Numbered from the stretch's first letter, positions 3,064 through 46,416 are shown. The stretch: 64,000 nucleotides of DNA from Bacteroides uniformis (GCA_963641445.1 CAVIBR010000002.1:51656-115655); one strand, 5' to 3'. The notes: generated by a model from the sequence alone, not told the origin. Made by a program: numbers and translations.

Positions 3064-3160
3064 TATATAAGGGAATGCCGGTTAAATAGAATAAACTAAA
3101 TATTCAGAAATATATACTTTTTTGACTTTTATTTTTATTTGCATTATGTATAATTGACTT

Positions 3161-5406: not shown

Positions 5407-5414
5407 AGGTGAGA

Positions 5415-20298: not shown

Positions 20299-20315
20299 AT
20301 TTGAATCCTCCAAAG

Positions 20316-27197: not shown

Positions 27198-28109
27198 GTG
27201 CAATTAACCATTTATCCTTTAGATTTTGAAGAGTTCCTATATAACTCAAATAGAATCCTATATAACGTCATTAAAGATGCGTACGAGAAGAAGGCGAAAA
27301 TCGATGAATCAATACATGAATTGGCTTTGAGGCAGTTTTACGATTATTTGGTCATTGGCGGTATGCCTGAAGTCGTAAATGAATTTTTAAAAACAAAATC
27401 ATATCAATCAGCAAAAGAAATACTGATTGACCTATATGACAATTACTTAGGGGATATGGAGTTATATCAAGCTAGTCCAGAATCGATTGTTTGTTCTAAG
27501 AAAGTTTTCGAAACAGTTTATTCTCAACTCAACAAGAAGTCTAAAAACTTCAAAACGTCTTTGATTGATAAGAATCTAAAAGGAAGGGATTTGCAAACTC
27601 CTATTGATTGGCTAACGCTTGCTTTTTTGGTAAATAAATCGTCGTTAGTAAAAGAAAAAGTATCCATCCCATTAATCAGCTCAAACGAATCGCTATTTAG
27701 ATTGTATTTGTCTGATATGGGCATGTTCACATATCAAAGCAGCATTAATCCAAAAGTATTTTTATCAAACGAAGGGATAAACACGCTTAGTGGAATATTT
27801 TTTGAGAATTATGTTGCGATAGAGTTAGTAAATTATGGATATGAACTATTCTATTGGAAAGGGAAGGGCGATTCTGAATTCGAATTTGTCATCGAAAGTG
27901 AATCAAGTATCATTCCTATAGATGTTAAGAAATCAAATGGAAAACTGAACTCACTTAAGAAATATACGGAACATAACACATTGAAATACGCAGTTAAAGT
28001 ATCAAAAAACAATTACGGATTTGATGAGGAAAACAAGATTTTGACAATACCATTTTATTTCCTTCCATTTTATTTAAAAGAACTCCGTAAGAAAGAAGAA
28101 ATAGATTGA
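27198..28109 (+). pseudogene. N-terminally truncated DUF4143 AAA-ATPase paralog (the P-loop half is missing). A likely gene remnant.
   Basis: 303 aa starting at a GTG. It aligns to residues from about 125 onward of the 408/409-aa paralogs (…YPLDFEEF… versus …MPLSTKEI…; shared …YLSDMGMFTY… region) and lacks the GxxGxGKST P-loop. 16-bp direct repeats AAAAGGTGCAATTAA at 27159-27173 and 27193-27207 flank the truncation point. Confidence 0.5.
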
Positions 28110-29365: not shown

Positions 29366-30592
29366 ATGAATTACATCAGACGACAATTAGAAAAAACAGT
29401 AGAAAAATTATCAAAGCAATTTCCTGTGATTATGCTTTGTGGGCAAAGGCAAACCGGGAAATCAACAATGTTAAGACATATCGCTGAAAAAGACAGGGTA
29501 TACGTTAGTTTTGATGATAATAAAGCAAGAACATTAGCGAAAAACGACCCTGAGTTGTTTTTTGAAAGATATGGAACAAAACTAATTATTGATGAATTTC
29601 AAAGAGTTCCAGAGATTTTGTTAGAAATCAAAAAAATAGTTGATGAAAAAACATACAATGATGAGGATTCCTCAGGAATGTTTTGGTTATCGGGCTCGCA
29701 AAAATTCGTTATGATGAAAAACATTTCTGAAACATTAGCGGGTAGAGTTGCCATACTAAGCTTAATGCCTTTATCTACAAAGGAAATCAATGGGCAAGAT
29801 GAAGATGTTTTCCACCCATACATCGAAACATTAAAAAAATTAGATCCACAAAAAGTAACGCAAAGCAAGATATTCGAAAGAATATTCCAAGGCGGGCTGC
29901 CAAAGATTATTGCTAATCAAGAATTGGATAGAGATGTTTATTATTCAAGCTATATAAACACTTATATCGAAAGAGATGTATCCGCACTAGAGCAGATTGG
30001 AAAACTTGATGAATTTAGAGATTTCATCACATATATGGCCGCGAATACAGCCCAGGAATTAAAATATGAAACTATATCAAAGGTTGTTGGAGTATCTTCT
30101 CCTACCATAAAAGAATGGGTAAGCATTTTGGAACGTTCCGGAATAATATATATCTTACGTCCTTATAATAATTCAGTAAGCAAAAGATTGGTTAAAACGC
30201 CGAAATGCTATTTCATAGATACAGGATTAGCAGCGTATCTAACTTCTTGGCCAACAGCAAGAACATTAGAGAATGGAGCAGCAGCTGGCGCTTTTTATGA
30301 AACGTATGTGGTATCCGAAATACTAAAAAGCTATTTTAACAACGGAAAAGAGCCAAATATTTATTATTATCGAGACATCGATCAAAAAGAAATCGATTTA
30401 TTGATTGTAGAGGGAGATAAGATCTATCCAATTGAAATAAAAAAGAATAAATTCCCGTCAAACCCGGATAAAAATTTTAAAGCGTTGGAAAAATTCAATC
30501 TTAAAATCATGCCAGGCATAATTCTTTGTATGAGTGATCAATTAATTCCTTATAACAGAGATTGCTGGCTATGCCCTATAAGTTTGATTTGA
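29366..30592 (+). CDS. AAA+ ATPase of the DUF4143 family (paralog 3)
   Basis: 408 aa. P-loop LCGQRQTGKST. Shares …YIERDV…, …KPKLYF(S/I)DTGLAAYL… and …YYYRD…EIDL… blocks with 7516-8745. Confidence 0.7.
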   Translation: MNYIRRQLEKTVEKLSKQFPVIMLCGQRQTGKSTMLRHIAEKDRVYVSFDDNKARTLAKNDPELFFERYGTKLIIDEFQRVPEILLEIKKIVDEKTYNDEDSSGMFWLSGSQKFVMMKNISETLAGRVAILSLMPLSTKEINGQDEDVFHPYIETLKKLDPQKVTQSKIFERIFQGGLPKIIANQELDRDVYYSSYINTYIERDVSALEQIGKLDEFRDFITYMAANTAQELKYETISKVVGVSSPTIKEWVSILERSGIIYILRPYNNSVSKRLVKTPKCYFIDTGLAAYLTSWPTARTLENGAAAGAFYETYVVSEILKSYFNNGKEPNIYYYRDIDQKEIDLLIVEGDKIYPIEIKKNKFPSNPDKNFKALEKFNLKIMPGIILCMSDQLIPYNRDCWLCPISLI

Positions 30593-30674: not shown

Positions 30675-30790
30675 TAATCTTTACGAAATTAAAATAATCT
30701 TTCGGATTTTTAATTATTCTCTCGGAAATTGAAATAATCTTTCGGAAAATCGATTATTCTTTCGGAAAATTCCCGAAAGATTATTGGCAA
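30675..30790. repeat. Array of about five 20-bp imperfect direct repeats (consensus AATTATTCTTTCGGAAAAT) ending in one inverted copy. A repeat-rich intergenic region upstream of the zinc-ribbon/SPFH/TIR gene cluster.
   Basis: taatctttacgaaatt / aaataatctttcggatttt / taattattctctcggaaatt / gaaataatctttcggaaaat / cgattattctttcggaaaat / tcccgaaagattattgg (inverted). Contiguous, with no spacers. Confidence 0.6.
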
Positions 30791-31180: not shown

Positions 31181-32821
31181 ATGAGTAAGTTTTACATTAA
31201 ATGTCCTAATTGTGGCAAATTCCATCTAGCATCAACCGGATTATTCGCTAGCAAACATATCGATTGCGATTGCGGTTATTCGATAAGTGTCAAAAACGAC
31301 AGAATGTCTTCCACAACATGCCCTGAATGCGACAACACTGTCGTTTACGATCAAGCAAAGGCGGGCAATGCTGAATGCCCAGTTTGTCATAAGCATTTAG
31401 ACCCATTAAAAGGGAATGGCTTAGTTAGCATTCATTGTCCAACATGCAATATCCAAACTAACGTAGATAAAGCGGCAAAATATTACACTTGCCCAGTTTG
31501 CGATACTACTATTGATGTTCAAAAGCAGATCGTTAAAGAGAATGCAGCAAATAGCAAAAAGATCTCTATTATCAAATACGAAGGCCCTAAAGATGTTATT
31601 TGCTATAAATATCCAGTCGAAGACTTTATTACAGGTTCAGAATTGATTGTTCATGAATCTCAAGTCGCAGTCTTCTTCAAAGATGGTGAAGCGTTAGATA
31701 CTTTCGGACCGGGAAGGCATTTCTTAACGACTGATAGGCTTCCTTTGATTGGAAAGTTCTACAAATTAGATACAAATCAAAACGCTCAGCCTTTCCATTG
31801 TGAAATATATTTCGTAAATATGTCCACCATAATGGGCGTCAAATGGGGCACGCCAAACAAAGTAGGCTTATTTGATCCTCATTCTGGTCTTCATGTCGAT
31901 ATTGGCGCATGCGGAACATTTAACCTAGTCGTCAAAGATGCAAGGAAACTCTTATTCAAGATTGTTGGCACAAGCAATGGCCTTTTTGAAGATGACATCA
32001 TTGGCGAAGATAGATTCTCTGGCATTTTCAAAGACTTGCTTGTTAACAAAGTTAAATCAAATCTTGCAAAAACAATCAGAGAAAGCAACATCAATATCCT
32101 TGAAGTAGACGAACATATCGATGAGATATCCGATGTTTTGAAGAAAGTGGTCAATCCAACACTTGAAGAATACGGGTTATCAATAACTGAATTCTACGTT
32201 GTTAACATTCTTCTTCCTAACGATGATCCAAACTTCAAGAAAATGAAGGAACAATATGCCGAGCAATATTTGAAAGTGAGAAACGAAAACATCCTTAAAG
32301 ATGAAGCGTTAGCAAAGCAGCAAAGAAGAATGGTTGAACTTCAAACTGAACAAAATGAAGAAATAATCAGAGCCCAAGCAAAAGCTCAAGCGTATCGTTT
32401 GCAAGCTCAAGCTGAAGCCGATGAAATGAAAATGAAGGGATACACCTACCAACAAGAAACCCAAAGACAGGTTGCATTAGGTGCAGTAACGAATGCGAGT
32501 GGAGAAGGCGGAGGAGTATCCGGAACTGCTTCAAGTATGATTGATTTGGGAATTGGCCTGGGAATGATGAAGGAGGTTGCAAAAACCGTTGGTGAAACAT
32601 TAAAACCAGGACTAGAAGAAAGTAAAAACGTCATATCAGAAACAATAAGTCCTTCTTCCACTTGGGAATGCCCTGAGTGCCATGCCAAAGGGCTAACTTC
32701 TAAGTTCTGCCCAGAATGTGGAGCAAAGAAGCCAGACGAAGAATGGACTTGTCCTGAATGCCATACCGAACATATCAAAACAAAATTCTGTCCTAATTGC
32801 GGACACAAAAGAGGAGAATAA
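31181..32821 (+). CDS. Multi-zinc-ribbon protein with a central SPFH/Band-7 (Band_7_1, YdjI-like) domain and a coiled-coil region
   Basis: 546 aa. The N-terminal 120 aa carry six CxxC pairs (CPNCG, CDCG, CPECD, CPVCH, CPTCN, CPVCD). Residues about 130-330 (IIKYEGPKDVICYKYPVEDFITGSELIVHESQVAVFFKDGEALDTFGPGRHFLTTD…FHCEIYFVN…GACGTFNLVV…) match the SPFH-like Band_7_1 fold. Then a Q/A/E-rich coiled coil and a Gly-rich linker. The C-terminus has two more zinc ribbons (CPECHAKG…CPECGAK; CPECHTEH…CPNCGHK). Confidence 0.65.
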   Translation: MSKFYIKCPNCGKFHLASTGLFASKHIDCDCGYSISVKNDRMSSTTCPECDNTVVYDQAKAGNAECPVCHKHLDPLKGNGLVSIHCPTCNIQTNVDKAAKYYTCPVCDTTIDVQKQIVKENAANSKKISIIKYEGPKDVICYKYPVEDFITGSELIVHESQVAVFFKDGEALDTFGPGRHFLTTDRLPLIGKFYKLDTNQNAQPFHCEIYFVNMSTIMGVKWGTPNKVGLFDPHSGLHVDIGACGTFNLVVKDARKLLFKIVGTSNGLFEDDIIGEDRFSGIFKDLLVNKVKSNLAKTIRESNINILEVDEHIDEISDVLKKVVNPTLEEYGLSITEFYVVNILLPNDDPNFKKMKEQYAEQYLKVRNENILKDEALAKQQRRMVELQTEQNEEIIRAQAKAQAYRLQAQAEADEMKMKGYTYQQETQRQVALGAVTNASGEGGGVSGTASSMIDLGIGLGMMKEVAKTVGETLKPGLEESKNVISETISPSSTWECPECHAKGLTSKFCPECGAKKPDEEWTCPECHTEHIKTKFCPNCGHKRGE

Positions 32822-32826
32822 AAACC

Positions 32827-33525
32827 ATGGTTAAGAAAGAAACTTATATTTTCGCTGGAATTATTACGGCCTTATCTTTATTGGCGTATTCTCTTCTATT
32901 TTTCCTCATTCCATTTCCAGTAAAGGATTCTAATGGACACATATTGAATTATGTGACAACGCTTGTGCTTGCTATCACCTTTGTCTGTTCTTTCCTTTTT
33001 GGCTTGTGGAAAAGAAAAGATGTCGCAGGACTTGTTTATAGAATTCCATTAATCAAGTTGATAATCGGATTTGTTATTGCCAACGTAATCGTTTCAATCA
33101 TTGAATGTACCATTAACTCCTTCGTGCCAATGCCATTCTATGCGCCAATAATTGTTGGAATCTTTGAACTCATCTTCTTCTTCAGTTTATTTGTGTTAAA
33201 AAGACAAAATATAACTCACATCGAAAATAACGAAGATAAACAAAAAGAAATGACAAGCGTCATTAAAGAATTAAGAACAAGAGCTAACGTTATCTTCAAT
33301 AACTGCAACGATGATGTTTCAAAAGAAAATATGAAGAAAGTTGTAGACGCTCTTCAATATTCTGATCCTGTTTCTTCTAAAGCGACAATTGAAAATGATG
33401 GCAAAATTGCTTCATTGTTAAATCAATTAGAAGAAATGGTTAATGATGGAAAATCCATAACATCCGTTGATGAAATATTAAAAGCAATTAGCAAAAGAAA
33501 CATAACAGCAATCAATAACAAATAA
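32827..33525 (+). CDS. Small membrane protein (4 predicted TM helices plus a C-terminal cytoplasmic helical domain), unknown function. Start revised to the ATG at 32827.
   Basis: The ORF track starts at a TTG (32797) inside the upstream gene. The ATG at 32827 (MVKKETYIF…) is preceded by AGAGGAGAA plus 8 nt and lies 5 nt after the upstream stop. Four hydrophobic segments, then a charged tail …KELRTRANVIFNNCNDDVSKENMKKVVDALQYSD…. Confidence 0.5.
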   Translation: MVKKETYIFAGIITALSLLAYSLLFFLIPFPVKDSNGHILNYVTTLVLAITFVCSFLFGLWKRKDVAGLVYRIPLIKLIIGFVIANVIVSIIECTINSFVPMPFYAPIIVGIFELIFFFSLFVLKRQNITHIENNEDKQKEMTSVIKELRTRANVIFNNCNDDVSKENMKKVVDALQYSDPVSSKATIENDGKIASLLNQLEEMVNDGKSITSVDEILKAISKRNITAINNK

Positions 33526-33540
33526 TCAGGAGTCTCTTTT

Positions 33541-36500
33541 ATGGCTTTATTTAAATGCAAAATGTGTGGGGGAGATCTCGTGGTCAAAGAGGGTGAGAAA
33601 GTAACCAAATGCCCCTATTGTGAGACAGCCCAAACAATCCCTAATCAAAAAGATGAACAAACAGTCAAATTAATTAACCGCGGAAATTTATTACGTAACC
33701 AAGGTGAATTCGATAAAGCGTATGGTATATTTTCCCAACTTCTAAATTCAGAAACCGAAGACGCGGAATTATATTGGAACCTTCTTCTTTGCAAATACGG
33801 CATAACATATGTCGATGATTATGATGGGAAGAAGATTCCAACCATCAATAGAATGTCACGCACCTCAATTCTTGATGATGACGATTATAAGAAAGTACTC
33901 TCTTTAGCAGATGTCGTTGCAAAAGATAATTATGTTGATGAAGCGAACAAAATAGCTAAGATTCAGGAGGGAATTTTGAAAATTGTTAATTCTGAAGAAC
34001 CATACGATGTCTTCATTTCCTACAAAGAAAGTGATGAAACAGGCGATAGAACAAGAGATTCCATTTTAGCGCAGGAAATCTACGATACTTTCACTAAAGA
34101 GGGATATCGTGTTTTTCTTTCCCGCATAACTCTTTCTAACATTATCGGAAAAGAATACGAACCATACATTTATTCTGCATTGTATTCATCAAAAATAATG
34201 TTATTGGTTTGCACGGATGAAAGTTACGTCAATTCCGTTTGGGTCAAAAATGAATGGACCAGATTCTTAGGCATGATGAAAGAGGATAAGAGTAAAACGC
34301 TTATCCCATGTTATAGAGATCTTGATCCATATGATTTGCCTAAGGAAATCAGAAACCTTCAAGGACTTGATATGTCCAAGCTTGGCTTCATCCAAGATTT
34401 AAAAACAGGCGTTTGCAAAATCCTTGGCAAAAAGAAAGCTGAGGCTGTTCCTTCTCCTACTCCAGCAAAAACGGAAAACAAGAACGAATCTCTAGATTTA
34501 GTCACCAAAATGATCAAAAGAGGATTCAGCTTCCTTGAACAAGAAAAGGGTGAACAAGCCAAAAAGATGTTTGAAGAGTCTTTGCTATATGAAGAAAGAA
34601 CCTACGCTTATTTAGGGTTACTTTGTCTTAAATACAATTGTTCAACAGTTGAAGAATTATATGCGCTTGATGATAAAAACATTGCAAACCAACCTCTTTT
34701 CAAAAAAGCTTTAAGCGTTGCTAACGAACAAGAACGAGAAACGTTAAATAACATCGTTAAAAGCATTACGGACAAAACATATAAGAAGGATCTAGCTAAA
34801 TACAATGCCGCTTTGAAATTGAAAAACGATGGCAATTATCATGACGCAATTCAAGCGTTTAATGCAATTCTAGATTTTTCCGATTCAAAGAATCAAATCA
34901 AAGAATGTGAAAATTTAATTCTAGAAGGTAAAAAAGCAATCCTTTACGAAAGACTATGCAAACAATATCAAGATAAATATTTCAAAGGCGTTTTAGAAAC
35001 GTTCCAAGAATTATATAAATTAGATAAAGATTATAAAGATTCTCGTAAATTGCAAGATGAATCCATTATCGCTTTATGCAACAATTTATTAAAAAGGAAC
35101 GATTATGTTAAAGTTCGAAAACTACTTAATGAAAATAGGTGTTTTTCCAAGGAATACATTGATGAAACATATAAAAAATGTGATCAGATTGAAAGAGAAA
35201 CTGAAAGCAAACAAGCAGAACATAAAAGAAGGCAAAACATTTATCAAGAATGTGATGTAATCAAAGAAAATGAAACGCTTTCTGACCTAGAAGCAAAATT
35301 GAACAAACTTCTTACGTGCAAGGGCGATGATTGCTATCCAGAATATACAGAGCAAAAGCTCAAAACAGCCATTAGGAAGAAAAAAGCAAAAAAAGGAATA
35401 TTCATAACTATCACCACAATGATTGTTTTAGCCGTTGGCGGAGGGATTCTCGCTAATGTAATCGTTAGCAAGATCAATGACAAAAAAGAGGCGGAGAGAT
35501 TATCTTCAATCGAAGAAAGACAATCTCAAGAACTATCTTCATTAAAGAAAAAATACGCCGCACCTATATTCAATTTCGAAGAAAAAACGATGACGTATGG
35601 CGTTTATCCACAAACTGTCGTTGATGATGAATCACTCATTGGCAAATTAAACGATTTAACAGGAGATTCTCAACATGAAAATGAATTTTATTATTACAAC
35701 GAAGAATATTATTATCCGGTAAAAGCAAATCCGAATAAGAGTAACTACGTTTTTAGCAATGGATCAAATATCATTAGTTCCACAAAATATTGGTTCAAAG
35801 TAGAGCCAATAAAATGGAAGATGATAAATGCTAGCGAAGACAGCATCACTTTAACAAGTACGGCATTGGTAACTAGACAGGCTTTTGCTGCCTCAACATA
35901 TGCCAATTCAGATGCAAGGAAATGGATTAATGGAGGATTTTATAACAAAGCTTTTTGTTTAGATGATTCCTTAATTCTTACTAGTGAGGTTGATAATAGT
36001 CATTCGATGCAAGATACATGTGGTAGCAAATATTACGAAGACAATACAAACGATAAGTTATATCTTTTAAGTTACCAAGATATTTATCAAAGAAAATACG
36101 AACTATCAACCGATACGACTGATCCTTATAACACCGGTTGCAAAATAACGGATTACATTAGAGCGTGTGGCGCATATTGCGACCTAAAAACTGGCTATGA
36201 ATATAATGGTGATTATTGGACGCGTTCCCTTTGCTCATCATCGGGCAATCCATCATGCGTAAATTCAAATGACACAATTAATCATAGCGTAGGTAATCGA
36301 AACTATAATGCATGCCTTAGACCATGCATGAAAATATCACACAAATGGACAGATGAAGAAAAAGCGTTAGCAAATAAGAACAATAATCAATTATCAGAGG
36401 GAAAGGCCGAGATTAAAGAAAAATATGGCAAACCTGTCGTAGATTTAGCTAATAACACGGTGAAATATGGCATATATCCACAAACTCTTGTTTCCGATGA

Positions 36501-37158
36501 AGCGTTAACAACTAAGTTAGATTCATCCTCTATTTACGATAGCGCTAACGGATGGTCTTACTATAACGGCGAATATTATAAGAAGTTTAAAGCTAACCCA
36601 TATGATAGTTCTTATACATACGATAACGATGAAACAATCGTAAGCGGAACATATTATTGGTTTAAATGTGAGCAAGTCGAATGGAAGATAATGAAAACGG
36701 GCGATGATGGCACATATCAACTAATAACTTCAAAACTGATAGATTGCAGATACTATTCATCAACACCAATGGATGATAGTTTTGCCAATTCATCAATAAG
36801 GACATGGCTTAACGGAACTTTTTATAATCAGATTTTTCTTGATCAGTCATATGTTCAAGAAACAAGCGATGAAAATAAATTTTATTTTTTAAGTGAGGAC
36901 GAATTATGCAGCTCAGATTATGGTTTTTCCTCCGATAATGCTTCGCGCTATTGCAAGACAACAGACTACGCTAGAGCGAATTATGCTTGTATTTATACTG
37001 ATGATGAAACTAAATATAACGGAATGTATTGGACTAGGACATATTATAAAGGTGGAGGCGGAGTTTTTTATGTCATCAAAAACGGATTTAACGATAGAGA
37101 CTCTGAATCAAGCATTATTTGCATTCGTCCATGCGTGAATATCAAAATCTCCGAATAA
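33541..37158 (+). CDS. Single-pass membrane TIR-domain protein: N-terminal zinc ribbon, TPR-like repeats, TIR domain, TPR-like region, one TM helix, then two extracellular DUF1566/Fib_succ_major-like lectin-type modules
   Basis: 1205 aa. Zinc ribbon CKMCGG…CPYCET. TIR: …PYDVFISYKESDETGDRTRDSILAQEIYDTFTKEGYRVFLSRITLSNIIGKEYEPYIYSALYSSKIMLLVCTDESYVNSVWVKNEWTRFLGM (DVFISY start, alphaC-like SxWxxNEW with Glu). TM at about aa 620, GIFITITTMIVLAVGGGILANVIV, preceded by KKKAKKG (N-in). The C-terminal 560 aa contain two repeated modules, each ending Y/MYWTRS/T…C(L/I)RPC(M/V)(K/N)I. RBS CAGGAG. Confidence 0.7.
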   Translation: MALFKCKMCGGDLVVKEGEKVTKCPYCETAQTIPNQKDEQTVKLINRGNLLRNQGEFDKAYGIFSQLLNSETEDAELYWNLLLCKYGITYVDDYDGKKIPTINRMSRTSILDDDDYKKVLSLADVVAKDNYVDEANKIAKIQEGILKIVNSEEPYDVFISYKESDETGDRTRDSILAQEIYDTFTKEGYRVFLSRITLSNIIGKEYEPYIYSALYSSKIMLLVCTDESYVNSVWVKNEWTRFLGMMKEDKSKTLIPCYRDLDPYDLPKEIRNLQGLDMSKLGFIQDLKTGVCKILGKKKAEAVPSPTPAKTENKNESLDLVTKMIKRGFSFLEQEKGEQAKKMFEESLLYEERTYAYLGLLCLKYNCSTVEELYALDDKNIANQPLFKKALSVANEQERETLNNIVKSITDKTYKKDLAKYNAALKLKNDGNYHDAIQAFNAILDFSDSKNQIKECENLILEGKKAILYERLCKQYQDKYFKGVLETFQELYKLDKDYKDSRKLQDESIIALCNNLLKRNDYVKVRKLLNENRCFSKEYIDETYKKCDQIERETESKQAEHKRRQNIYQECDVIKENETLSDLEAKLNKLLTCKGDDCYPEYTEQKLKTAIRKKKAKKGIFITITTMIVLAVGGGILANVIVSKINDKKEAERLSSIEERQSQELSSLKKKYAAPIFNFEEKTMTYGVYPQTVVDDESLIGKLNDLTGDSQHENEFYYYNEEYYYPVKANPNKSNYVFSNGSNIISSTKYWFKVEPIKWKMINASEDSITLTSTALVTRQAFAASTYANSDARKWINGGFYNKAFCLDDSLILTSEVDNSHSMQDTCGSKYYEDNTNDKLYLLSYQDIYQRKYELSTDTTDPYNTGCKITDYIRACGAYCDLKTGYEYNGDYWTRSLCSSSGNPSCVNSNDTINHSVGNRNYNACLRPCMKISHKWTDEEKALANKNNNQLSEGKAEIKEKYGKPVVDLANNTVKYGIYPQTLVSDEALTTKLDSSSIYDSANGWSYYNGEYYKKFKANPYDSSYTYDNDETIVSGTYYWFKCEQVEWKIMKTGDDGTYQLITSKLIDCRYYSSTPMDDSFANSSIRTWLNGTFYNQIFLDQSYVQETSDENKFYFLSEDELCSSDYGFSSDNASRYCKTTDYARANYACIYTDDETKYNGMYWTRTYYKGGGGVFYVIKNGFNDRDSESSIICIRPCVNIKISE

Positions 37159-37221
37159 AACAAAAATCCATTTTTCCCCATCAAAAGCCTTACGGATTTA
37201 CATTTTAGTAAGGCTTTTTAA

Positions 37222-38883
37222 TTAACTTTGTTTTTCACATTTAATAGAAACTTTGTTTTTATAGAAACTAACACCAAACAAAAGGGTATTCTTAATACCT
37301 AGATTTTTTAATTCTTGATCGTATCCTTGCGTTTTTATTTGTTTTATAGCATTCTCTGTTGAATTTTCTAATCTCGATTCAATTGTTCTAGTTTTTAAAG
37401 ATTTAACTTCAACCACAAATCCTAAATCTTTGTTATCTTTTGGTATGACTACTATATCCGCTCTGCCACTACCAGCATTGAATTCGTTTTTGATGTATGC
37501 GTCATCGAATATTACGGCTAAAGTCGTAGATAACAATATTTGGTAGTTTTTCTCTAAATTCATCTCATATGATGAGAAAGTAGACAAGAGATATTTTTCC
37601 ATTAAGTCCTTAAGATTAGAAGAATCTCCATCTTGGAAGGCCTTCTTCAATTTATAGACTAGAGGAATTTGATCACTCCTAAGATATCTGGAACGGATTT
37701 CTCTTCTGAACACTGCTTTGATTTCTTTGTTAGGTATAACAAGGCTGTAAAATTCTTCGTAGTTATCCGAGATTGATAAGTAACCACTAGCTAAAAGATA
37801 AGAACATACCGAAATAAACGAATCGTCTAAATCCTTATAGGAAAGAGCTATATCTATCTCGGTATTAATCTTCTTATCAGATAATAAAGGCAATAAGGAA
37901 TTTAAACGTTCTAAGCTAAGTATCTTTCCTAAAGTTTTGCTTTCGCCAGTATTGTTCCAATACATTCCATCTTCTCCCCCGTTTTGAATAAAGCTCAAAA
38001 CAGATAATGGATTGAATATTTTAGAATTTCCAAACTTATATCCTCCATACCAGGAGCAGACATCATCATATCTCTCAGAATAGTCATAATATTCAAGCAT
38101 ATCTTTGACTTCATTTTCGGTGAAGCCAAATCCTTCATCCATATTCTTAGAAAGAATTGAGTTGGTAACTAAATTATTAACCCCGGAGAATAATGATTCT
38201 TTTGCGATTTGCAGTATTCCAGTTATCACGGCTAAACGAAGAGATTGATTGGTCTTTAAGCTTTCACCGAAATATTGTTTGAAGAACATGATCGTTTCAT
38301 CATAGAAACCATAATCAAAAGAATAATGAACAGGAGAATCATATTCATCAATTAAGATGATGACCTTTTTATTAGTCGTTTTATATAGCATCTCAGACAA
38401 TCTTAGCAAGGAACTAGAAAGATCGTTTATCGTAGAATCCTTAGCGACAATTGATTGAAAATATTCTTTTTCTTCAGAATTTAATGTCGATGAAGAAAGA
38501 ATATAGGCATGGCGTTGATACTCTTTGCTCATACATTCTTTCATTTTTTCAATCAATGTTTCAAAATCCATTCCTATTACATTTTTTAAATTGATATGTA
38601 TAAGCGGGTATTTTTGGAATTCATTTTCAATAACTTCTTTGTTATTCCATATTTTTTTACCTTTGAAATATTGACTTTTATCGGTTTCGTCTTTTTCAAA
38701 AAACTCTTGAAGCATTGATAACATCAAAGTTTTGCCAAATCTTCTAGGACGAGTAAAAAGTAAGCATGTTCCAGTAGGAAATTTTGAAATAGTCTCAATA
38801 ATGTTTGTTTTGTCTACGTAATAACATTCATTCGATACTGTCTCGAAGAATTCAATTCCTAATGGTACAGGTTTCTTTTCCAT
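37222..38883 (-). CDS. AAA-ATPase_like N-terminal domain plus C-terminal PD-(D/E)XK nuclease-like domain protein (DUF1703-type predicted AAA-ATPase)
   Basis: 553 aa. Hallmark N-terminal region …ECYYVDKTNIIETISKF…LFTRPRRFGKTLMLSMLQEFF… and Walker-B-like ILIDEYDSPV. C-terminal …NAGSGRADIVVIPKDNKDLGFVVEVKSLK… matches the PD-(D/E)XK (D…EVK) core of DUF1703. RBS CAGGAG. Convergent with the TIR gene. Confidence 0.65.
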   Translation of the reverse strand: MEKKPVPLGIEFFETVSNECYYVDKTNIIETISKFPTGTCLLFTRPRRFGKTLMLSMLQEFFEKDETDKSQYFKGKKIWNNKEVIENEFQKYPLIHINLKNVIGMDFETLIEKMKECMSKEYQRHAYILSSSTLNSEEKEYFQSIVAKDSTINDLSSSLLRLSEMLYKTTNKKVIILIDEYDSPVHYSFDYGFYDETIMFFKQYFGESLKTNQSLRLAVITGILQIAKESLFSGVNNLVTNSILSKNMDEGFGFTENEVKDMLEYYDYSERYDDVCSWYGGYKFGNSKIFNPLSVLSFIQNGGEDGMYWNNTGESKTLGKILSLERLNSLLPLLSDKKINTEIDIALSYKDLDDSFISVCSYLLASGYLSISDNYEEFYSLVIPNKEIKAVFRREIRSRYLRSDQIPLVYKLKKAFQDGDSSNLKDLMEKYLLSTFSSYEMNLEKNYQILLSTTLAVIFDDAYIKNEFNAGSGRADIVVIPKDNKDLGFVVEVKSLKTRTIESRLENSTENAIKQIKTQGYDQELKNLGIKNTLLFGVSFYKNKVSIKCEKQS

Positions 38884-38904: not shown

Positions 38905-38940
38905 TTACAACATCAAACAACATCAAACAACATTTGTCTC
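38905..38940. repeat. Tandem decamer CATCAAACAA x3, plus a flanking pair of 20-bp repeats (TTG(T/C)AAGCGTTGT(T/A)TGAG on the minus strand) in the promoter region of the DUF1703-type gene
   Basis: acatcaaacaacatcaaacaacatcaaacaacatttg, then …catacaacgcttgcaacat…catcaaacaacgcttacaacat. The region lies between the XRE stop (39083) and the DUF1703 start (38883). Confidence 0.5.
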
Positions 38941-39082
38941 TCTCATACAACGCTTGCAACATTTTTACTCATCAAACAACGCTTACAACATAAAATCATC
39001 AAAAATAAAGTAAAAAAATCCAAAAATCAGCATAATCGTAAAAATCTATCTAGTGTTTTAGAATTAAATATTCAAAAAAAGA

Positions 39083-39298
39083 TTAATCCTCTTGGCTCTT
39101 TCTTTCCTTACGGATCGGTCCAGCTTCCATGCCAAACATTTCAAGAGCTACATTAACTTTGTCCATGCGCACTGTTGGCTTTCCTTGTTCTAAATCTCTA
39201 ATAAAGCGTAATCCGAGACCAGAACGCATCGCAAACTCTTCTTGGGTAAGCCCTGCTTCTTTTCTGCTTTTCTTAACAAATTCTGCTATTGGATTCAT
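39083..39298 (-). CDS. XRE-family (Cro/CI-type) helix-turn-helix transcriptional regulator, 71 aa
   Basis: MNPIAEFVKKSRKEAGLTQEEFAMRSGLGLRFIRDLEQGKPTVRMDKVNVALEMFGM… is a canonical HTH_XRE. Confidence 0.8.
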   Translation of the reverse strand: MNPIAEFVKKSRKEAGLTQEEFAMRSGLGLRFIRDLEQGKPTVRMDKVNVALEMFGMEAGPIRKERKSQED

Positions 39299-41149: not shown

Positions 41150-43216
41150 TTAGTTTAAGGCGATAGAAGAAATAACCATCAATCCAGCAAATACGTATCC
41201 CATTGCAAAGAACACGCCATATAAAATCAAGGTGAAATAATCTAAAGGCTTATTCCTGCTTCCGAAATGTGGGTGATAGAAAAGTAGCATTGGAGCTAGA
41301 TAGATAATTTCCCAATATCCTCCTAATCCCCTATTTCCTTTTGTTGAATGGGCGAGCAAATATTCCGTTAAGGAAAGAACGCAGATAATCACGCAGATAA
41401 GAATATTCTTCATAAAATAGAATTTATTGCCGTTAAAGAAACGTCCTGCAACTTCAGGTCCATATCTGAATTTAAAGAAGAGTCTAAGGAAATAAAGACC
41501 GATCAAGTAAGAGCAGCATAATAAGGAGAATTGAGGTCTTTCGGAATTGAAGAAATAAACCTGCCATGTATTAAAGTTTAGGCCCCATTTCTTGTAGTTT
41601 TGGAAAATAACGGTTGAAATGATAATCCATGCTAAAGGAAGAATGGCTAAGCACCTAAAACCTATTGTTTTCTTCTTTGAATCCATCCAGCCTGGAGAAT
41701 AGAAAAGGAAGACCATGATGCCAAAATAACAAGCGATCGTAGAAAAGTTATTCGGAATGACATAGAAAAGATCGACTATCTTAGCAACTCCTCTTGTCAT
41801 GCTGAAATATTGAACCAATGTTGCTTCAAGAATATATAATCCAAAGAAAACAATGAAATAAAGGAAGAAATTTCTAAGACTTCTTCTATCATTAAGGAAA
41901 ATATCGAAATCAATGAAATATAGTAAGAACATTCCAACCGTGAAATACATGAACAAGCTTAAGGAAGTAGATTCGAAATCGGATTGATCGATTCCTGTGA
42001 AGGTGAAAAGATTTATCGTATAAAGAATGATTCTTATCGAGCCGAAAAAGACAAGACCTATTCCAATTAATTCATATATCGTTTCAGGAACAAATGGATA
42101 GAAACGTATGTCTTTCTTCGGTGTCACGCATGATCTAGATATTGGAGCGTCGTTTGCTAATTTAAGTTCACGTGCTGCATCCTTTGCTAATCTCTTTTTG
42201 CTCTTTCCACCAAAGAAGATGGCAAAGAGAATGAAGAAAAGGAATCCACCAGTTAGAATAACTCCGCCTAAACCAAAGCCAAGAGAAGAAATCTCCGCAT
42301 AAAGATTCTCCGTCGCGCTTTCTGCATGATCGACAAGCAATTCGTTATAGAAATTGTAATCTAAGTCTAATTTCTCTTTGATTAAAGATGTGAAGGCGTC
42401 GTTAAGCTCATTAACATGTTCTAAGGCCTTATCTTTTAATTTTAGATACACCTCACTAGAAGATTCATAATGGTTATATGCCCCATCATAGAGATCATCG
42501 GTGAATTTAAACTCACTTTTATCATCGTCTCTTTGTAGGTTGTTCGTGTATTTTACGAGGGTTTCGCGGTCGATATATTGAAATTTGATTGTTGTTAATG
42601 CTTTTTTTGCATCATTAGGAATGATGTAATAAATATTCTCTTCCTCGCTTGAATAACAAACATATGCGTTAAGACTTCTAATAGCGTAGTCTTCCGTTGA
42701 AGTACTAATAGAGGTAAATCTCCCATTAGAAGATGAATGAATCTCAGGTCTAGTCATCTCGTGGAGGAGGGAAACTGTTGTTCCGCCTTTTTCTCTCATT
42801 GTATAAGCGAATGTTAGATATCTTTCGTTATAGAAATCAGTCGCATGATCCATGACATAGCCATAACGGCAAAAGCCGAATATCGTTAAGCCAATTGATG
42901 CAAGAAGGAAAACCAATATTCCTATTTTGACATATACCTTTGATAATAATTTCTGATAGAACTTAACAAACCAACCGACCTTTTCAGGCAATTCAGCAGG
43001 ATAAGAGGAGACTCCTTCAAGATATTGAGAATAATCAACGCCTAATGCTTTAGAAATTCTTTCAACGTATTTTTTGCCTGGTTTGACATATCCATTTTCG
43101 TAATAAGAATAAAAAAGAGGGGGTACGTTAAGCAGTTTTGCAAACTTTCGCTTAGTTAATCCCATCTCCATTCTTCTCTTGTAGAGATATTCGTTATAGG
43201 CGATGCTTACTTCCAT
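41150..43216 (-). CDS. Membrane protein with an N-terminal cytoplasmic XRE-type HTH domain fused to a large polytopic membrane domain (membrane-anchored one-component regulator candidate)
   Basis: 688 aa. N-terminal …YLYKRRMEMGLTKRKFAKLLNVPPLFYSYYENGYVKPGKKYVERISKALGVDYSQYLEG is HTH_XRE. Then 1 TM, an extracytoplasmic domain of about 230 aa, a second TM and a basic loop (GKSKKRLAKDAAREL), then about 8 further TM helices. TGT-TATACT (extended -10) lies 7 nt upstream of the ATG: leaderless candidate. Confidence 0.6.
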   Translation of the reverse strand: MEVSIAYNEYLYKRRMEMGLTKRKFAKLLNVPPLFYSYYENGYVKPGKKYVERISKALGVDYSQYLEGVSSYPAELPEKVGWFVKFYQKLLSKVYVKIGILVFLLASIGLTIFGFCRYGYVMDHATDFYNERYLTFAYTMREKGGTTVSLLHEMTRPEIHSSSNGRFTSISTSTEDYAIRSLNAYVCYSSEEENIYYIIPNDAKKALTTIKFQYIDRETLVKYTNNLQRDDDKSEFKFTDDLYDGAYNHYESSSEVYLKLKDKALEHVNELNDAFTSLIKEKLDLDYNFYNELLVDHAESATENLYAEISSLGFGLGGVILTGGFLFFILFAIFFGGKSKKRLAKDAARELKLANDAPISRSCVTPKKDIRFYPFVPETIYELIGIGLVFFGSIRIILYTINLFTFTGIDQSDFESTSLSLFMYFTVGMFLLYFIDFDIFLNDRRSLRNFFLYFIVFFGLYILEATLVQYFSMTRGVAKIVDLFYVIPNNFSTIACYFGIMVFLFYSPGWMDSKKKTIGFRCLAILPLAWIIISTVIFQNYKKWGLNFNTWQVYFFNSERPQFSLLCCSYLIGLYFLRLFFKFRYGPEVAGRFFNGNKFYFMKNILICVIICVLSLTEYLLAHSTKGNRGLGGYWEIIYLAPMLLFYHPHFGSRNKPLDYFTLILYGVFFAMGYVFAGLMVISSIALN

Positions 43217-43284
43217 ACGTATGAGTATAACATTTTAAAGTTTCTTTCTATTATCTTTTTCTTTTGATTGCTACAATATATCAG

Positions 43285-45147
43285 ATGAAATTTAAGAAGA
43301 TTTTAGTATATTCAACGCTTACCATCTTCCTTTGTTCCTGTGACCAAAAAAAGCCGGGGAATTTCTCATTTCGTTATTCTCAAGCAGTAAGCAATGATTA
43401 TACTGGTCAAGCTTATTATACAGATGAATATTTCAAAAAGGATTCGATTGAATATAATCAATCGCTATCCACTTCATCTCTTTGCTTTGCTATGTCTGCT
43501 TTTGCCAGCAATTCAACTCAATCCTACAGTAATAAATATATAAACGTTCAAAGCTTCCTTGAAAGAAATGGATTTAGCAAGATTGATGTGAATCAATATT
43601 TCAAAGTTAAACCTACAGCAGATTCTCTAGGCGTTTGTTTTGGAATGAAACAAATTGATGGAGTTACTTTGGTTGCAGCCGGAATTCGTGGCGCAGGATA
43701 CGAAATGGAATGGGCGAGCAACCTTACCATCGGCGATGGAGAGAAAATCAAACAGCACCAAGGCTTTTATGAAGCATCATCAATTTATCTTGAATCTTTA
43801 CATGATTATTTAAAAAACAATGCAATAACCGGCTCGATTAAGCTTTGGAGCGTTGGTTATTCACGTGCAGCCGCGACAAATAATCTTGCATGTGGAAGAA
43901 TTGATCAAAGAATAGATGAGAATAAAACTATCTTTGATGATTTGGATGTTACAATCAAAAAAGAGGACCTTTTCGCATATTGTTTTGAATGCCCTCAAGG
44001 AGCGTCATGGAACGAGACAATCTCTCCAAGAGATAAAATATATTCAAACATTCACAACATCATAAATTCCAACGATCCTGTTCCAATGGTCGCGATGTCT
44101 GCCTTCCATTTCACACGTTATGGGATTGATTATTATCTTCCTGATTCGATTAGAAATTCTAACTACTCATCTTTTGAACCAAGAATGCTTGAGTTATATA
44201 ACAAACTAGATAATCGTTCTGCTTTAGGGGATTACGTTATTGATGATTTCAATATGCGTGGAAGCAAGGAAGAAAATCTAGATGCGTCAAAATCAACAAA
44301 TGCTAGAAAGAATTGGACATCAGGCTTGTTCTTAAATGAATTATTAAACAATCTTTCTACGTACGGCATTGGTTCAGTTGCCAATTACTTCACCAACATC
44401 CAAGCTGGTCTTAGAACAGTTTGTGAGATTCTTTTCAATAATAGCCAAGCTAAATTCTCTTTAATGAATCTAGGCGTATCCTTAGCAAGAATATTCGTTA
44501 ATGACTCAAACGTTGATATTGTCGTCAATAACCTTTTCCATGATTTAAGTGCGTTTAAAAATGATTTGTTATATGCGTTAAAAATCGCCTTTGATTCGAT
44601 GGGGATAACAACGAATCCTAACGATATAATCGATGCCTTAGAATCTTTAGTTAGTGCATTAGTAAAAACTTTATCAATGCATTTTGAATATTTCTTTGTT
44701 TTCCTTTCTACATCGAATATCAAAGCACTTGCCCAGGCGCACTTCCCTGAATTGTGTTTTTCTCATATGATGGCATTAGACACCAATTATAACGATACGG
44801 TTAAAGAATATAACAATGACGGAAGCTATTATTATTTGCAAATACCTGATTTAAATGACAAAACAAAGATCACAATAACAAACAAAGAAGGCAAGCAAGT
44901 CGCGGGATTAGATGCCTATCAGTTATATGCGAATGGAACTCTTTCTTATGCGGTTATGGAAAATACGTTTGTTGCATATATTCCAGTTGATGAAGAATAT
45001 ACGATAAATATTGAAAATGGAACTGGCTACGACCTTTCTTATTTCGACCAAAGATATGAAGATATGATTTCATATAAGTTAGGCGAAATAAAAGATGAAA
45101 CATTTTCCTTAAGCACAGAAACATATCCGGAAAAGAAAGTGCAATAA
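43285..45147 (+). CDS. Secreted/lipoprotein alpha/beta-hydrolase (lipase-like, GYSRA nucleophile-elbow) protein. Start revised to the ATG at 43285.
   Basis: The ORF track starts at a TTG (43264). The ATG at 43285 gives MKFKKILVYSTLTIFLCSCDQKK (signal plus Cys). GxSxG-like motif …IKLWSVGYSRAAATNNLAC… Lipase_3-like context (…GVTLVAAGIRGAGYEMEWASN…). TACAAT lies 7 nt upstream of the ATG (leaderless candidate). Confidence 0.5.
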   Translation: MKFKKILVYSTLTIFLCSCDQKKPGNFSFRYSQAVSNDYTGQAYYTDEYFKKDSIEYNQSLSTSSLCFAMSAFASNSTQSYSNKYINVQSFLERNGFSKIDVNQYFKVKPTADSLGVCFGMKQIDGVTLVAAGIRGAGYEMEWASNLTIGDGEKIKQHQGFYEASSIYLESLHDYLKNNAITGSIKLWSVGYSRAAATNNLACGRIDQRIDENKTIFDDLDVTIKKEDLFAYCFECPQGASWNETISPRDKIYSNIHNIINSNDPVPMVAMSAFHFTRYGIDYYLPDSIRNSNYSSFEPRMLELYNKLDNRSALGDYVIDDFNMRGSKEENLDASKSTNARKNWTSGLFLNELLNNLSTYGIGSVANYFTNIQAGLRTVCEILFNNSQAKFSLMNLGVSLARIFVNDSNVDIVVNNLFHDLSAFKNDLLYALKIAFDSMGITTNPNDIIDALESLVSALVKTLSMHFEYFFVFLSTSNIKALAQAHFPELCFSHMMALDTNYNDTVKEYNNDGSYYYLQIPDLNDKTKITITNKEGKQVAGLDAYQLYANGTLSYAVMENTFVAYIPVDEEYTINIENGTGYDLSYFDQRYEDMISYKLGEIKDETFSLSTETYPEKKVQ

Positions 45148-45225: not shown

Positions 45226-46416
45226 TTATTTATTCTCTTCGTTATTTTTGACTTCTTCTTTTGGTGTATCATCGAAAGCATAATCGGAGAAATCCCAGTC
45301 AGGATGTTTTTCAACAACCTTTCTTAAGGATTCCTTGATCAAATCAAGTTCGATATCTTTCTTTTCTTCACCGGAATCTTTAATAGCTTTATCTGCGTTA
45401 GCAAGAGCCGTTTTCGCTTCAGTCTCACTTTCTTCGATAAGACCGGAGATCAATAAATAAGCTCTAACTGCTGGCGCACTGCTTAAGTTAGCAATGAACT
45501 TCTTCTCTTCAAGAGGGAGTGAAACATATTCTTCTCTGGAAGCTTCAAGGTCGCCATTTAATAAATGGATGGAAAGTCTTTGAGCAATTGCATTGTTATA
45601 AACCTTAGAAGACACTTTTGCTTTAGATGAAATCGTATATTCATTGATCTCTAATGCGGTAGCAAAATCTCTTTCTTTTAACGCTTTATAAACGGAGACT
45701 TGGTTAAGGGAATTGGTGAAGTCTGTAACTTCTTTATAAATAGGCGTCTCAGGTAATTCTTCTCCAAGAGCCATTTTTTCTTGAGCAAGAAGAAGATTGT
45801 TATATGCTTCAACGTTTGTTTTGTTATTTAGAATTGTCATTAAATAGCCGTCGTTTTTGCTATCTAATGCGGCAGGGAATATGTTATATAAGTTAACGAG
45901 AACGCAGATAGTAAGAACGATTAAGCCTGCGACATAAACCGATTCCCAAAGAGCGTTGTTGTCTTTGAAGAAGGCTTTGCCCATAACAACACAGGCCGCA
46001 CATGCAGCGATTTCAAGCAAGAAAATAACAAGCGGGGAATATATAACGTGTCTTGGATTTACTTTTTTGCCTTCTTTTGGCGCGATAGCGGTTTCGCCCG
46101 TTAGGCCATCAAAGGAGAAGGAGAAGGAGAAATGTAGGTGATTGTCTTTTTCTCTTTTCCACTGGATTCCAAGAATGTTGACTTTGGTAATTTTATATCC
46201 ACCAATCTTAGCGCCAATTATATGTCCAACTTCGAGTAAGATTGCTGATAATAAAACACCAACAACAACTGCGATAATGACATATAGAATTGAGTTCATT
46301 GGTAAGTATGAACCATTTGAGCCTAATTCTGGTCTAAGCATCACGAAGCCTACGACGGCTGCAATGCCTAGCATAAGGATGTATACAATCCATCCCATTG
46401 CTTCATTTTTCTTCAT
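45226..46416 (-). CDS. Membrane protein of unknown function (N-terminal 5-6 TM region plus C-terminal TPR-like/helical domain)
   Basis: 396 aa. TM segments in residues 1-200, then a soluble helical region …YNNLLLAQEKMALGEE…YKALKERDFATALEINEY…AYLLISGLIEE…. RBS TAGGAGGA. Confidence 0.45.
   Translation of the reverse strand: MKKNEAMGWIVYILMLGIAAVVGFVMLRPELGSNGSYLPMNSILYVIIAVVVGVLLSAILLEVGHIIGAKIGGYKITKVNILGIQWKREKDNHLHFSFSFSFDGLTGETAIAPKEGKKVNPRHVIYSPLVIFLLEIAACAACVVMGKAFFKDNNALWESVYVAGLIVLTICVLVNLYNIFPAALDSKNDGYLMTILNNKTNVEAYNNLLLAQEKMALGEELPETPIYKEVTDFTNSLNQVSVYKALKERDFATALEINEYTISSKAKVSSKVYNNAIAQRLSIHLLNGDLEASREEYVSLPLEEKKFIANLSSAPAVRAYLLISGLIEESETEAKTALANADKAIKDSGEEKKDIELDLIKESLRKVVEKHPDWDFSDYAFDDTPKEEVKNNEENK

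Follow-up and report, generated by a model that had tools for sequence, protein, structure and literature searches.

Three adjacent genes at positions 31181-37158 of a stretch of DNA from Bacteroides uniformis (GCA_963641445.1 CAVIBR010000002.1:51656-115655; 64,000 nucleotides (nt), called the window below) raise a question: do a zinc-ribbon scaffold protein, a small membrane protein and a TIR protein act together, and what would such a system do? Gene A (31181-32821, + strand, 546 amino acids (aa)) encodes an SPFH scaffold protein that is predicted to be cytoplasmic. Gene B (32827-33525, + strand, 232 aa) encodes the membrane protein, and gene C (33541-37158, + strand, 1205 aa) encodes a single-pass receptor-like protein, the N-terminus of which is predicted to lie inside and the C-terminus outside the cell. 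The original prediction, made from the sequence alone, described three tightly packed open reading frames (ORFs), and their coordinates were confirmed. The gaps are 5 nt between A and B and 15 nt between B and C, all three genes are co-oriented, and Shine-Dalgarno-like sequences stand 5' of B (GAGGAG) and of C (AGGAG). B starts at the ATG at 32827; the listed TTG start at 32797 is unsupported because homologues open with MVKKETY or similar. A, B and C are a tight co-oriented module.

The results indicate that this triad is very probably a functional unit with an N-in/C-out receptor topology. We are evenly divided over the wider reading that A, B and C make up a conserved three-component membrane TIR receptor system, in which receptor arrays on a YdjI-like SPFH platform would cleave NAD+ on clustering.

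Conservation and linkage of the three genes

Individual look-ups found the partner genes alongside all five TIR homologues and all three A homologues that were followed up. Some TIR homologues aligned along their whole length with 46-62% identity, and others resembled C in the N-terminal module alone; the A homologues were 50-54% identical. These loci had unrelated flanking genes, and the TIR gene could either precede or follow the A-B pair. For an A-seeded scan, one genome per species was searched with an alignment of A, and the 35 loci with at least 4 kilobases (kb) on both flanks were counted. Family-C TIR genes, one to five of them, were carried by 34 of the 35 loci (upstream only in 11, downstream only in 13, on both sides in 10). 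B directly followed A in 32 of the 35, and none of the TIR genes was on the opposite strand. For a reverse scan, metagenomes were searched with the TIR domain, and loci of at least 12 kb were counted; A was present on the same strand in 28 of these 31. One A-B pair is almost always found beside one to five co-oriented C paralogues. The co-occurrence that the original prediction had named as its check holds in both directions. All other computational checks by which it could have failed (TIR and SPFH matches, fold and topology) were made as well, and none went against it. When all remaining ORFs were clustered, no fourth component was conserved in more than 10 of the 93 loci.

The three genes might still be unrelated neighbours brought together by coincidence in one genome. 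This explanation is effectively refuted because co-occurrence is reciprocal; strict co-orientation, short gaps, and varied flanks and gene orders also speak against it, and we consider it barely conceivable.

Sequence searches returned 5947 clusters of A relatives at 90% identity and, among the 8000 best candidates scored, at least 6601 clusters of C relatives at the same identity. The names given to relatives of C and A are only generic, such as 'hypothetical protein' and 'TPR repeat protein'. A is present in at least 587 species-level genomes, and its carriers are gut and rumen Lachnospiraceae, Oscillospiraceae, Ruminococcus, Acutalibacteraceae and Erysipelotrichales-like 'Bacilli'. Only 7 of 2.9 million viral contigs encode a relative of A, so a phage origin of the system was rejected. 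The closest genome match (L014, CAVIJE010000007.1), with an A protein 84% identical, is labelled Sodaliphilus sp. (Bacteroidales). The GC content of this contig (35.6%) and its gene content resemble those of the Bacillota loci, and it is probably mis-binned. The labels 'Chloroflexi' (L064) and 'Bacteroidales' (L023) call for the same caution.

PADLOC gave no match for A, B or C, and PHROGs gave no meaningful match for the module proteins. In the full-text literature, outside of which most subscription journals lie, no paper was found that links SPFH/Band-7 proteins with bacterial TIR domains or reports transmembrane bacterial TIR receptors. A survey of TIR proteins (PMC7075850) does not describe family C. 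A paper that had looked promising (PMC11237479) was set aside, as it concerns CesT/Tir chaperones and not TIR domains. As far as checked, the system is undescribed and very widespread, and it puts known parts in a new arrangement. The earlier claim of novelty therefore stands with respect to PADLOC, NCBIfam and this literature.

The receptor-like protein and its TIR domain

From its N-terminus to its C-terminus, C consists of a zinc ribbon, an N-domain, a TIR domain, TPR-like helices, a transmembrane (TM) helix, a stalk and two DUF6273 domains, all encoded on the + strand. The ribbon (C6xxC9...C24xxC27), which had been noticed before, and a family-specific helical/beta-hairpin N-domain (aa 38-140) occupy 33550-33960. 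This region is about 70% identical among orthologues; C9, C24 and C27 are invariant in the alignment, and the motif YW..L.LCKYGI.YVDD is conserved. The TIR domain (aa 141-297, 33961-34431; Pfam TIR_2, PF13676) is followed by a TPR-like all-helical region (aa 316-615, 34486-35385), which was recognised by AlphaFold2 helices with a predicted local distance difference test score (pLDDT) above 90 and by Foldseek matches to TPR proteins. The TPR-like region is poorly conserved (33-52% identity). The sole TM helix (IFITITTMIVLAVGGGILANVIV) spans aa 620-642 (35398-35466) and comes after AIRKKKAKKG.

The part beyond the TM helix carries two DUF6273 domains (Pfam PF19789, cut-off 23.5 bits) that are predicted to be extracellular, the first at 35881-36336 (52.6 bits) and the second at 36742-37146 (31.5 bits). 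The second module is missing from some orthologues (e.g. P0005 and P0007). The label DUF1566/Fib_succ_major, given to this ectodomain in the original prediction, has to be replaced, since neither family was matched even at E ≤ 1. According to a phage study, DUF6273 has a C-type-lectin fold (PMC10743442). That study concerns the Tentaclins of gut phages, which are varied by diversity-generating retroelements (DGRs). Tentaclins share with C the use of the lectin-fold DUF6273 as a variable ligand-binding module in the same ecosystem, but the domain is here on a bacterial membrane receptor and not on a phage tail. Diversification of DUF6273 by a DGR was considered and rejected: the window holds no long repeats, and the 172 related loci hold no adenine-biased pairs of template and variable repeats (TR/VR). 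Neither a reverse transcriptase nor a TR/VR repeat pair was found near the module genes.

Topology was judged from hydropathy, flanking charge, absence of a signal peptide and the Cys4 ribbons. A signal-like N-terminal hydrophobic segment was found in none of 120 C-family members. Lysine and arginine together number 5.0 on average in the 15 residues that precede the TM helix, against 1.5 after it. Cys4 ribbons are expected to require the reducing cytosol. Because of the charge distribution, the zinc ribbons and the lack of a signal peptide, the TIR domain is placed in the cytoplasm; the ribbon, N-domain and TPR-like region are predicted to lie there with it, and the lectin domains outside. A single TM helix after KKKAKKG with the TIR domain inside is the arrangement that had been proposed. 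At least 200 aa lie beyond the TM helix in 79 of the 104 TM-bearing family members, and fewer than 60 aa in 23.

The N-terminal module of the family (ribbon, N-domain and TIR) is 60-74% identical between proteins with unrelated C-terminal halves. What follows the TM helix may be DUF6273, Flg_new (Listeria-Bacteroides repeats), LRR_5, RCC1_2/WD40_RLD or DUF1566 domains, or almost nothing, and ectodomain modules have been gained and lost between orthologues of C. Judged by their sequences, C-type proteins are single-pass receptors with interchangeable extracellular binding domains. Two otherwise identical metagenome loci, L008 and L009, differ in a second TIR receptor gene (2945-6265). This gene is intact in L009 (1106 aa, RCC1 propeller), and its counterpart in L008 is split into ORFs of 680 aa and 368 aa that have no TIR annotation. 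The difference suggests decay or variation of single receptor paralogues at the strain level.

The TIR assignment, also made earlier, was well supported. Residues 157-280 of C matched Pfam TIR_2 (PF13676) with 53.9 bits (cut-off 28, E = 3.2e-14). An AlphaFold2 model of aa 1-620, built with 40 homologues, had a mean pLDDT of 87. In Foldseek, the TIR part of the model matched, with a probability of 1.0, AbTir (7uxu, target template-modelling score 0.70), the flax protein L7 (7vu8) and Roq1 (7jlx). Further TIR matches, with equal probability, were TIR-STING, the TIR-APAZ protein of SPARTA (8qlo) and MAL (5uzb), and the rest of the model matched TPR proteins. When the sequence of the cytosolic part was searched against the PDB, designed WD40 proteins ranked highest. 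They were discarded as artefacts of summed sub-significant repeats, and only the matches to the TIR domains of L6 and L7 were real in that search.

The putative catalytic Glu lies in SVWVKNEW (aa 232-239), as had been pointed out; its codon, GAA, is at 34252-34254, and the surrounding motif is W234-V-K-N-E238-W. E238 is present in 239 of 243 aligned C-family members, and the other 4 have a gap there. W234 is present in 238 of the 243, and N237 is also nearly invariant. The family profile alignment, which also matches a Brucella TIR protein (4lzp), puts E238 on the Glu of WCLEEL in Roq1. We take W-x-x-x-E to be the active-site arrangement of AbTir. No part of C is better conserved than its TIR domain (78-86% identity, when orthologues are 46-62% identical overall), and the helical linker with the TM helix is the least conserved (20-52%). 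On this sequence and model evidence, the TIR domain is likely to be catalytically competent, with its putative catalytic residues intact. We lean towards the view that it is an NADase controlled by clustering.

Known bacterial TIR NADases, such as ThsB of Thoeris, the TIR-SAVED and TIR-STING proteins of CBASS, TIR-APAZ of SPARTA, and AbTir, have the same fold with equivalent Glu and Trp positions. By analogy, activation by induced oligomerisation may be expected here as well. Those enzymes, however, are soluble and sense nucleotides, guide-target duplexes or phage proteins inside the cell. C crosses the membrane once and has, besides its TIR domain, a large predicted extracellular binding region, and its gene is genetically coupled to genes for SPFH and 4-TM proteins. 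In addition, there is no ThsA, cyclase or Argonaute partner at the module.

C and its relatives may instead be surface adhesins or glycan-binding proteins, in which the TIR domain would be an assembly module tied to an SPFH lattice, with no enzymatic signalling. DUF6273, LRR_5/BspA-like domains, Listeria-Bacteroides repeats and RCC1 propellers are typical of Bacillota surface proteins, and the gut and rumen habitat fits such a role. In animals, too, TIR domains can be pure assembly modules, and the MAL match above is to a filament. A scaffold alone, however, does not explain the near-invariant W-x-x-x-E or the very high conservation of the TIR domain, and almost a quarter of the TM-bearing members (23/104) have almost no ectodomain with which to adhere. 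We regard an adhesin role as very improbable.

The scaffold, the membrane partner and the proposed mechanism

How would a TIR receptor be organised in the membrane? A was earlier described as a multi-zinc-ribbon, YdjI-like SPFH protein, and this description proved correct. Its Band_7_1 (SPFH, YdjI-type) domain (aa 149-348, 31625-32224, + strand) matched Pfam PF13421 with 136.3 bits (cut-off 24, E = 1.4e-39). The CxxC positions define five Cys4 zinc ribbons, three at the N-terminus (aa 8-107) and two at the C-terminus (aa 497-540), the latter with a Pfam match to DZR (double zinc ribbon). Between the Band_7_1 domain and the C-terminal ribbons, the layout of a 13-sequence alignment shows a coiled coil (about aa 350-430), then a Gly-rich low-complexity stretch with a conserved hydrophobic DLGxGLG segment (about aa 440-475). 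In this alignment, the family plan is fixed: the Cys columns are invariant and the domain order is kept. The number of C-terminal ribbon repeats varies from two to six in the family. A has no TM helix by hydropathy and no signal peptide. Profile search yielded no solved structure for Band_7_1, as only the zinc ribbons were matched (ribosomal protein L32 and PolD). Short forms of A (368-424 aa) are frequent in the metagenome loci. The lack of a membrane anchor, the low-complexity segment and the C-terminal zinc ribbon are features of YdjI-type proteins (PMC8581546), and from its sequence A is classed as a soluble YdjI-type SPFH protein rich in zinc ribbons.

In Bacillus subtilis, YdjI forms membrane clusters only with the help of two membrane proteins, YdjG and YdjH, and recruits PspA as its client (PMC8581546). 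YdjG combines an NTF2-like domain with two zinc ribbons and a TM segment, and YdjH is a TPM-domain protein (PMC11237479). The module resembles PspA-YdjGHI in several respects. Both have a soluble Band_7_1 protein with a low-complexity segment and a C-terminal zinc ribbon, both co-encode one or more membrane partners and a client, the partners being needed for membrane placement in B. subtilis, and zinc ribbons are prominent in both. They differ in that the client here is a TIR receptor and not PspA, that B is a 4-TM protein with a helical bundle and lacks the TPM domain of YdjH and the NTF2-like domain of YdjG, that extra ribbons are fused to the SPFH protein, and that there are one to five receptor paralogues with ectodomains. 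Pfam detected no equivalent of PspA, of a TPM protein or of the NTF2-like YdjG in the window module or in 13 annotated related loci. The analogy with pspA-ydjGHI drawn in the original prediction is therefore right for A but only partly apt for the whole: the module shares the plan of soluble SPFH protein, membrane tether and client, yet it is a different operon.

This likeness raises the possibility of an envelope-stress or membrane-maintenance module. A, anchored by B, would organise microdomains, and the TIR clients would monitor the cell wall or surface with a non-lethal, regulatory output, either an NAD-derived signal or pure scaffolding; anti-phage suicide would not be its function. The YdjI architecture of A (Band_7_1, low-complexity segment, C-terminal ribbon, no TM helix; PMC8581546) points in this direction, as do the spread of A over at least 587 species-level genomes, its rarity in viral contigs (7 among 2.9 million), the housekeeping surroundings of many loci and neighbours that are not enriched for defence genes by eye. 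Nevertheless, PspA, TPM and NTF2-like YdjG are missing from the 13 annotated loci, and Pfam assigns B to no family. Arrays of as many as five paralogous receptors, with binding domains exchanged among them, suggest diversified recognition and not housekeeping, and the strictly conserved putative catalytic Glu and Trp argue for an enzymatic TIR domain. To our knowledge, every enzymatic TIR domain so far characterised in bacteria is linked to the cleavage of NAD+ in a conflict system. We consider the envelope-stress explanation unlikely.

B has four TM helices by hydropathy (aa 10-28, 43-61, 73-91 and 106-124). The fourth is predicted to run on as a long helix into a cytosolic helical bundle, and the nearly invariant YSDPVS motif (aa 178-183) lies in this soluble bundle. 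No Pfam, NCBIfam, PADLOC or PHROG family was assigned to B, and the sole Pfam signal at E ≤ 0.01 was a sub-threshold match to MFS_1. At the same threshold B does not belong to the NfeD family, so the locus is not an SPFH-NfeD operon. A word-indexed search found only 5 relatives, because B evolves fast; with a full HMMER profile search, 2494 clusters at 50% identity were recovered, almost without exception 225-240 aa in length. B would define a new 4-TM protein family of about 2500 such clusters.

Some loci lack B. There, the TIR proteins beside A end in 3-5 TM helices and not in one TM helix with an ectodomain (L019:11644-13854; L062:11802-14012 and 14028-16475; L016:1365-3641). These polytopic proteins of L019, L062 and L016 have no detectable homology to B. 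Because TIR proteins carry 3-5 TM helices where B is missing, the data suggest that the system requires a polytopic membrane part, and that TIR proteins may provide it in cis and so substitute for B. At two other loci, a short TIR-family gene (about 558 aa) sits between A and B and breaks their adjacency (L045:11870-13549 and L050:11861-13537).

The make-up of B allows another explanation, a two-step signalling system like Thoeris. The TIR domains would make a cyclic ADP-ribose isomer or an ADP-ribose conjugate, and B, A or both would be the effector, with the bundle of B binding the signal and the four TM helices permeabilising the membrane. B does join a 4-TM part to a conserved soluble domain with a nearly invariant YSDPVS motif, and CBASS, Pycsar and type II Thoeris commonly use TM effectors that are joined to a ligand-binding domain. 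The TIR domain also matched ThcB4 of type III Thoeris in NCBIfam (E = 5.5e-7), but with 28.7 bits this match is far below the cut-off of 220. On the other side, PADLOC matched none of the three proteins, no nucleotide-binding fold (SLOG, Macro, SAVED or CARF) could be recognised in B, and B is dispensable in some loci with polytopic TIR proteins. With no PADLOC match and no effector-like conserved fourth gene, the module is not a Thoeris system of types I-IV. We consider two-step signalling of this kind quite improbable.

In this study, we believe that a membrane TIR receptor system would work in the following way. B would tether the oligomeric A platform to the inner face of the membrane, as YdjG and YdjH tether YdjI, and the zinc ribbon and N-domain of each C paralogue would dock on this platform. 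A ligand or perturbation at the surface, for example a phage particle, a glycan or cell-wall damage, would alter the clustering of the receptors. Clustering would then drive the TIR domains into head-to-tail assemblies, like those that make other TIR domains active NADases. The resulting cleavage of NAD+ could lead, through depletion or a signal, to arrest or death of the cell. Surface-triggered immunity or stress-induced growth arrest is the most likely role, yet it is the least certain step. That the trigger is a phage or another extracellular attacker is a tentative suggestion, and we rate it as rather doubtful.

Several points weigh against this receptor mechanism. We infer the NADase activity, the contacts among A, B and C, and the oligomerisation. 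Its very wide and often syntenic occurrence is less typical of defence systems, which tend to be patchily distributed, and neither a downstream effector nor a signal receiver is encoded in the module. Housekeeping genes surround several of the loci. A set of 115 immediate neighbours from 80 species, annotated with PADLOC and Pfam and counted without a background control, was heterogeneous. Defence-type neighbours among the 115 were single matches to AbiLi and AriA and a few PDC candidates; other neighbours included 7 integrases or resolvases and 5 HTH_3 proteins. Because the neighbours are heterogeneous and the defence matches scattered, guilt by association for defence is weak. A defence role is plausible, and the context neither supports nor excludes it.

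The proposed layout of a sensor outside, one TM helix and a TIR domain inside invites comparison with metazoan Toll-like and interleukin-1 receptors. They share an outside binding domain, one TM helix, an inside TIR domain, and paralogues with varied ectodomains. In plants, SPFH (HIR) proteins organise immune receptors (PMC13534476), and here, too, the receptors are associated with an SPFH microdomain protein. However, the orientation of C is reversed: it is predicted to be a type II protein with an N-terminal TIR domain and a C-terminal ectodomain, and Toll-like receptors are type I. Moreover, the ectodomains of the C family are mostly lectin-fold and not LRR horseshoes, no adaptor or kinase cascade is present, and C keeps the catalytic Glu that the TIR domains of Toll-like receptors lack. 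The likeness noted in the original prediction thus holds for the arrangement and not for the orientation. It is functional and topological, and most simply convergent.

A stronger form of the receptor hypothesis is that transmembrane pattern-recognition receptor arrays on an SPFH 'raft' turn extracellular recognition, such as phage adsorption or a foreign glycan, into NAD+ cleavage in Bacillota of the gut and rumen. We hold this form to be speculative and, on balance, unlikely. If true, it would be the first prokaryotic outside-in TIR immune pathway and a functional counterpart of Toll-like receptors coupled to flotillin/HIR microdomains. All characterised bacterial TIR systems that we know of sense intracellular events. 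With a TIR enzyme attached to a binding domain outside the cell, bacteria could pass from surface recognition straight to NAD+-based signalling or suicide, and animal Toll-like receptors would then stand conceptually closer to bacterial TIR effectors. For the YdjI-type SPFH proteins, of which little is understood, such a system would provide a definite client and a function. Given its abundance in Clostridia and Erysipelotrichales of the human gut and rumen, the system could shape phage-host and host-microbe interactions.

Genomic surroundings of the module

The region is chromosomal and lies between sugar-utilisation and transporter genes. The window's own surroundings look accessory. Upstream of A lie a full-length DUF4143 ATPase gene (29366-30592; PADLOC PDC-S01 match, 4e-110) and a paralogue with a GTG start that lacks the AAA_14 ATPase half (27198-28109) and is probably a truncated pseudogene. 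In L001 and L002, two related loci, the position of the DUF4143 gene is occupied by different DUF4143 and SLFN/AlbA_2 ATPase genes; this position is a variable spot beside a syntenic module. Downstream, a convergent AAA-ATPase_like + PDDEXK_9 gene (37222-38883, - strand) is followed by an XRE helix-turn-helix (HTH) gene (39083-39298). All four of these features had been listed in the original prediction and were found, but the argument for defence that it built on them is not general across loci.

Between C and the convergent gene, a hairpin (AAAAGCCTTAC...GTAAGGCTTTTT) with a T-run at 37183-37219 was read directly from the sequence. A scan passed over this hairpin, the loop of which exceeds 8 nt. 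Most probably it terminates transcription in both directions and closes the operon.

Just downstream of the DUF4143 gene, some 400 nt before A, five direct copies of a 20-nt repeat (consensus TAATCTTTCGGAAATTAAAA) and one inverted copy form an array (30675-30783). Its core motif occurs in the window more often than expected (8 matches against 2.3). The array had been noted before and is present, but it is not part of the system: it was rejected as an operator of the module, being absent from 176 of 179 related loci, with one match in each of the other three. It could be a regulator-binding array or the remnant of a mobile element. A small tandem repeat with a 29-nt period and 2.8 copies (38907-38991) lies just upstream of the start of the 37222-38883 gene.

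Further from the module, three ORFs have no Pfam match at 1e-5: 20389-23004 (- strand, 871 aa), 18886-20313 (- strand, 475 aa) and 45226-46416 (- strand, 396 aa). They lie among genes for glycoside hydrolases (GH65, GH28) and transporters. A 688-aa protein with HTH_3 and a polytopic membrane region (41150-43216, - strand) is encoded divergently from a 627-aa protein without a Pfam match (43264-45147, + strand). The same pair flanks the module in L001 and L002 and is a conserved pair that serves as a syntenic anchor in this lineage.

Among the related loci, one is on a mobilisable element, and another (L007) lies between GmrSD, AbiH and an SbcC-like gene. L007 (3079-18998) shows a second style of module, with a 403-aa A protein that probably lacks most zinc ribbons, a 237-aa B protein and a 669-aa TIR protein that is tail-anchored. 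A solo gene for a 1607-aa TIR receptor lies 1.3 kb away.

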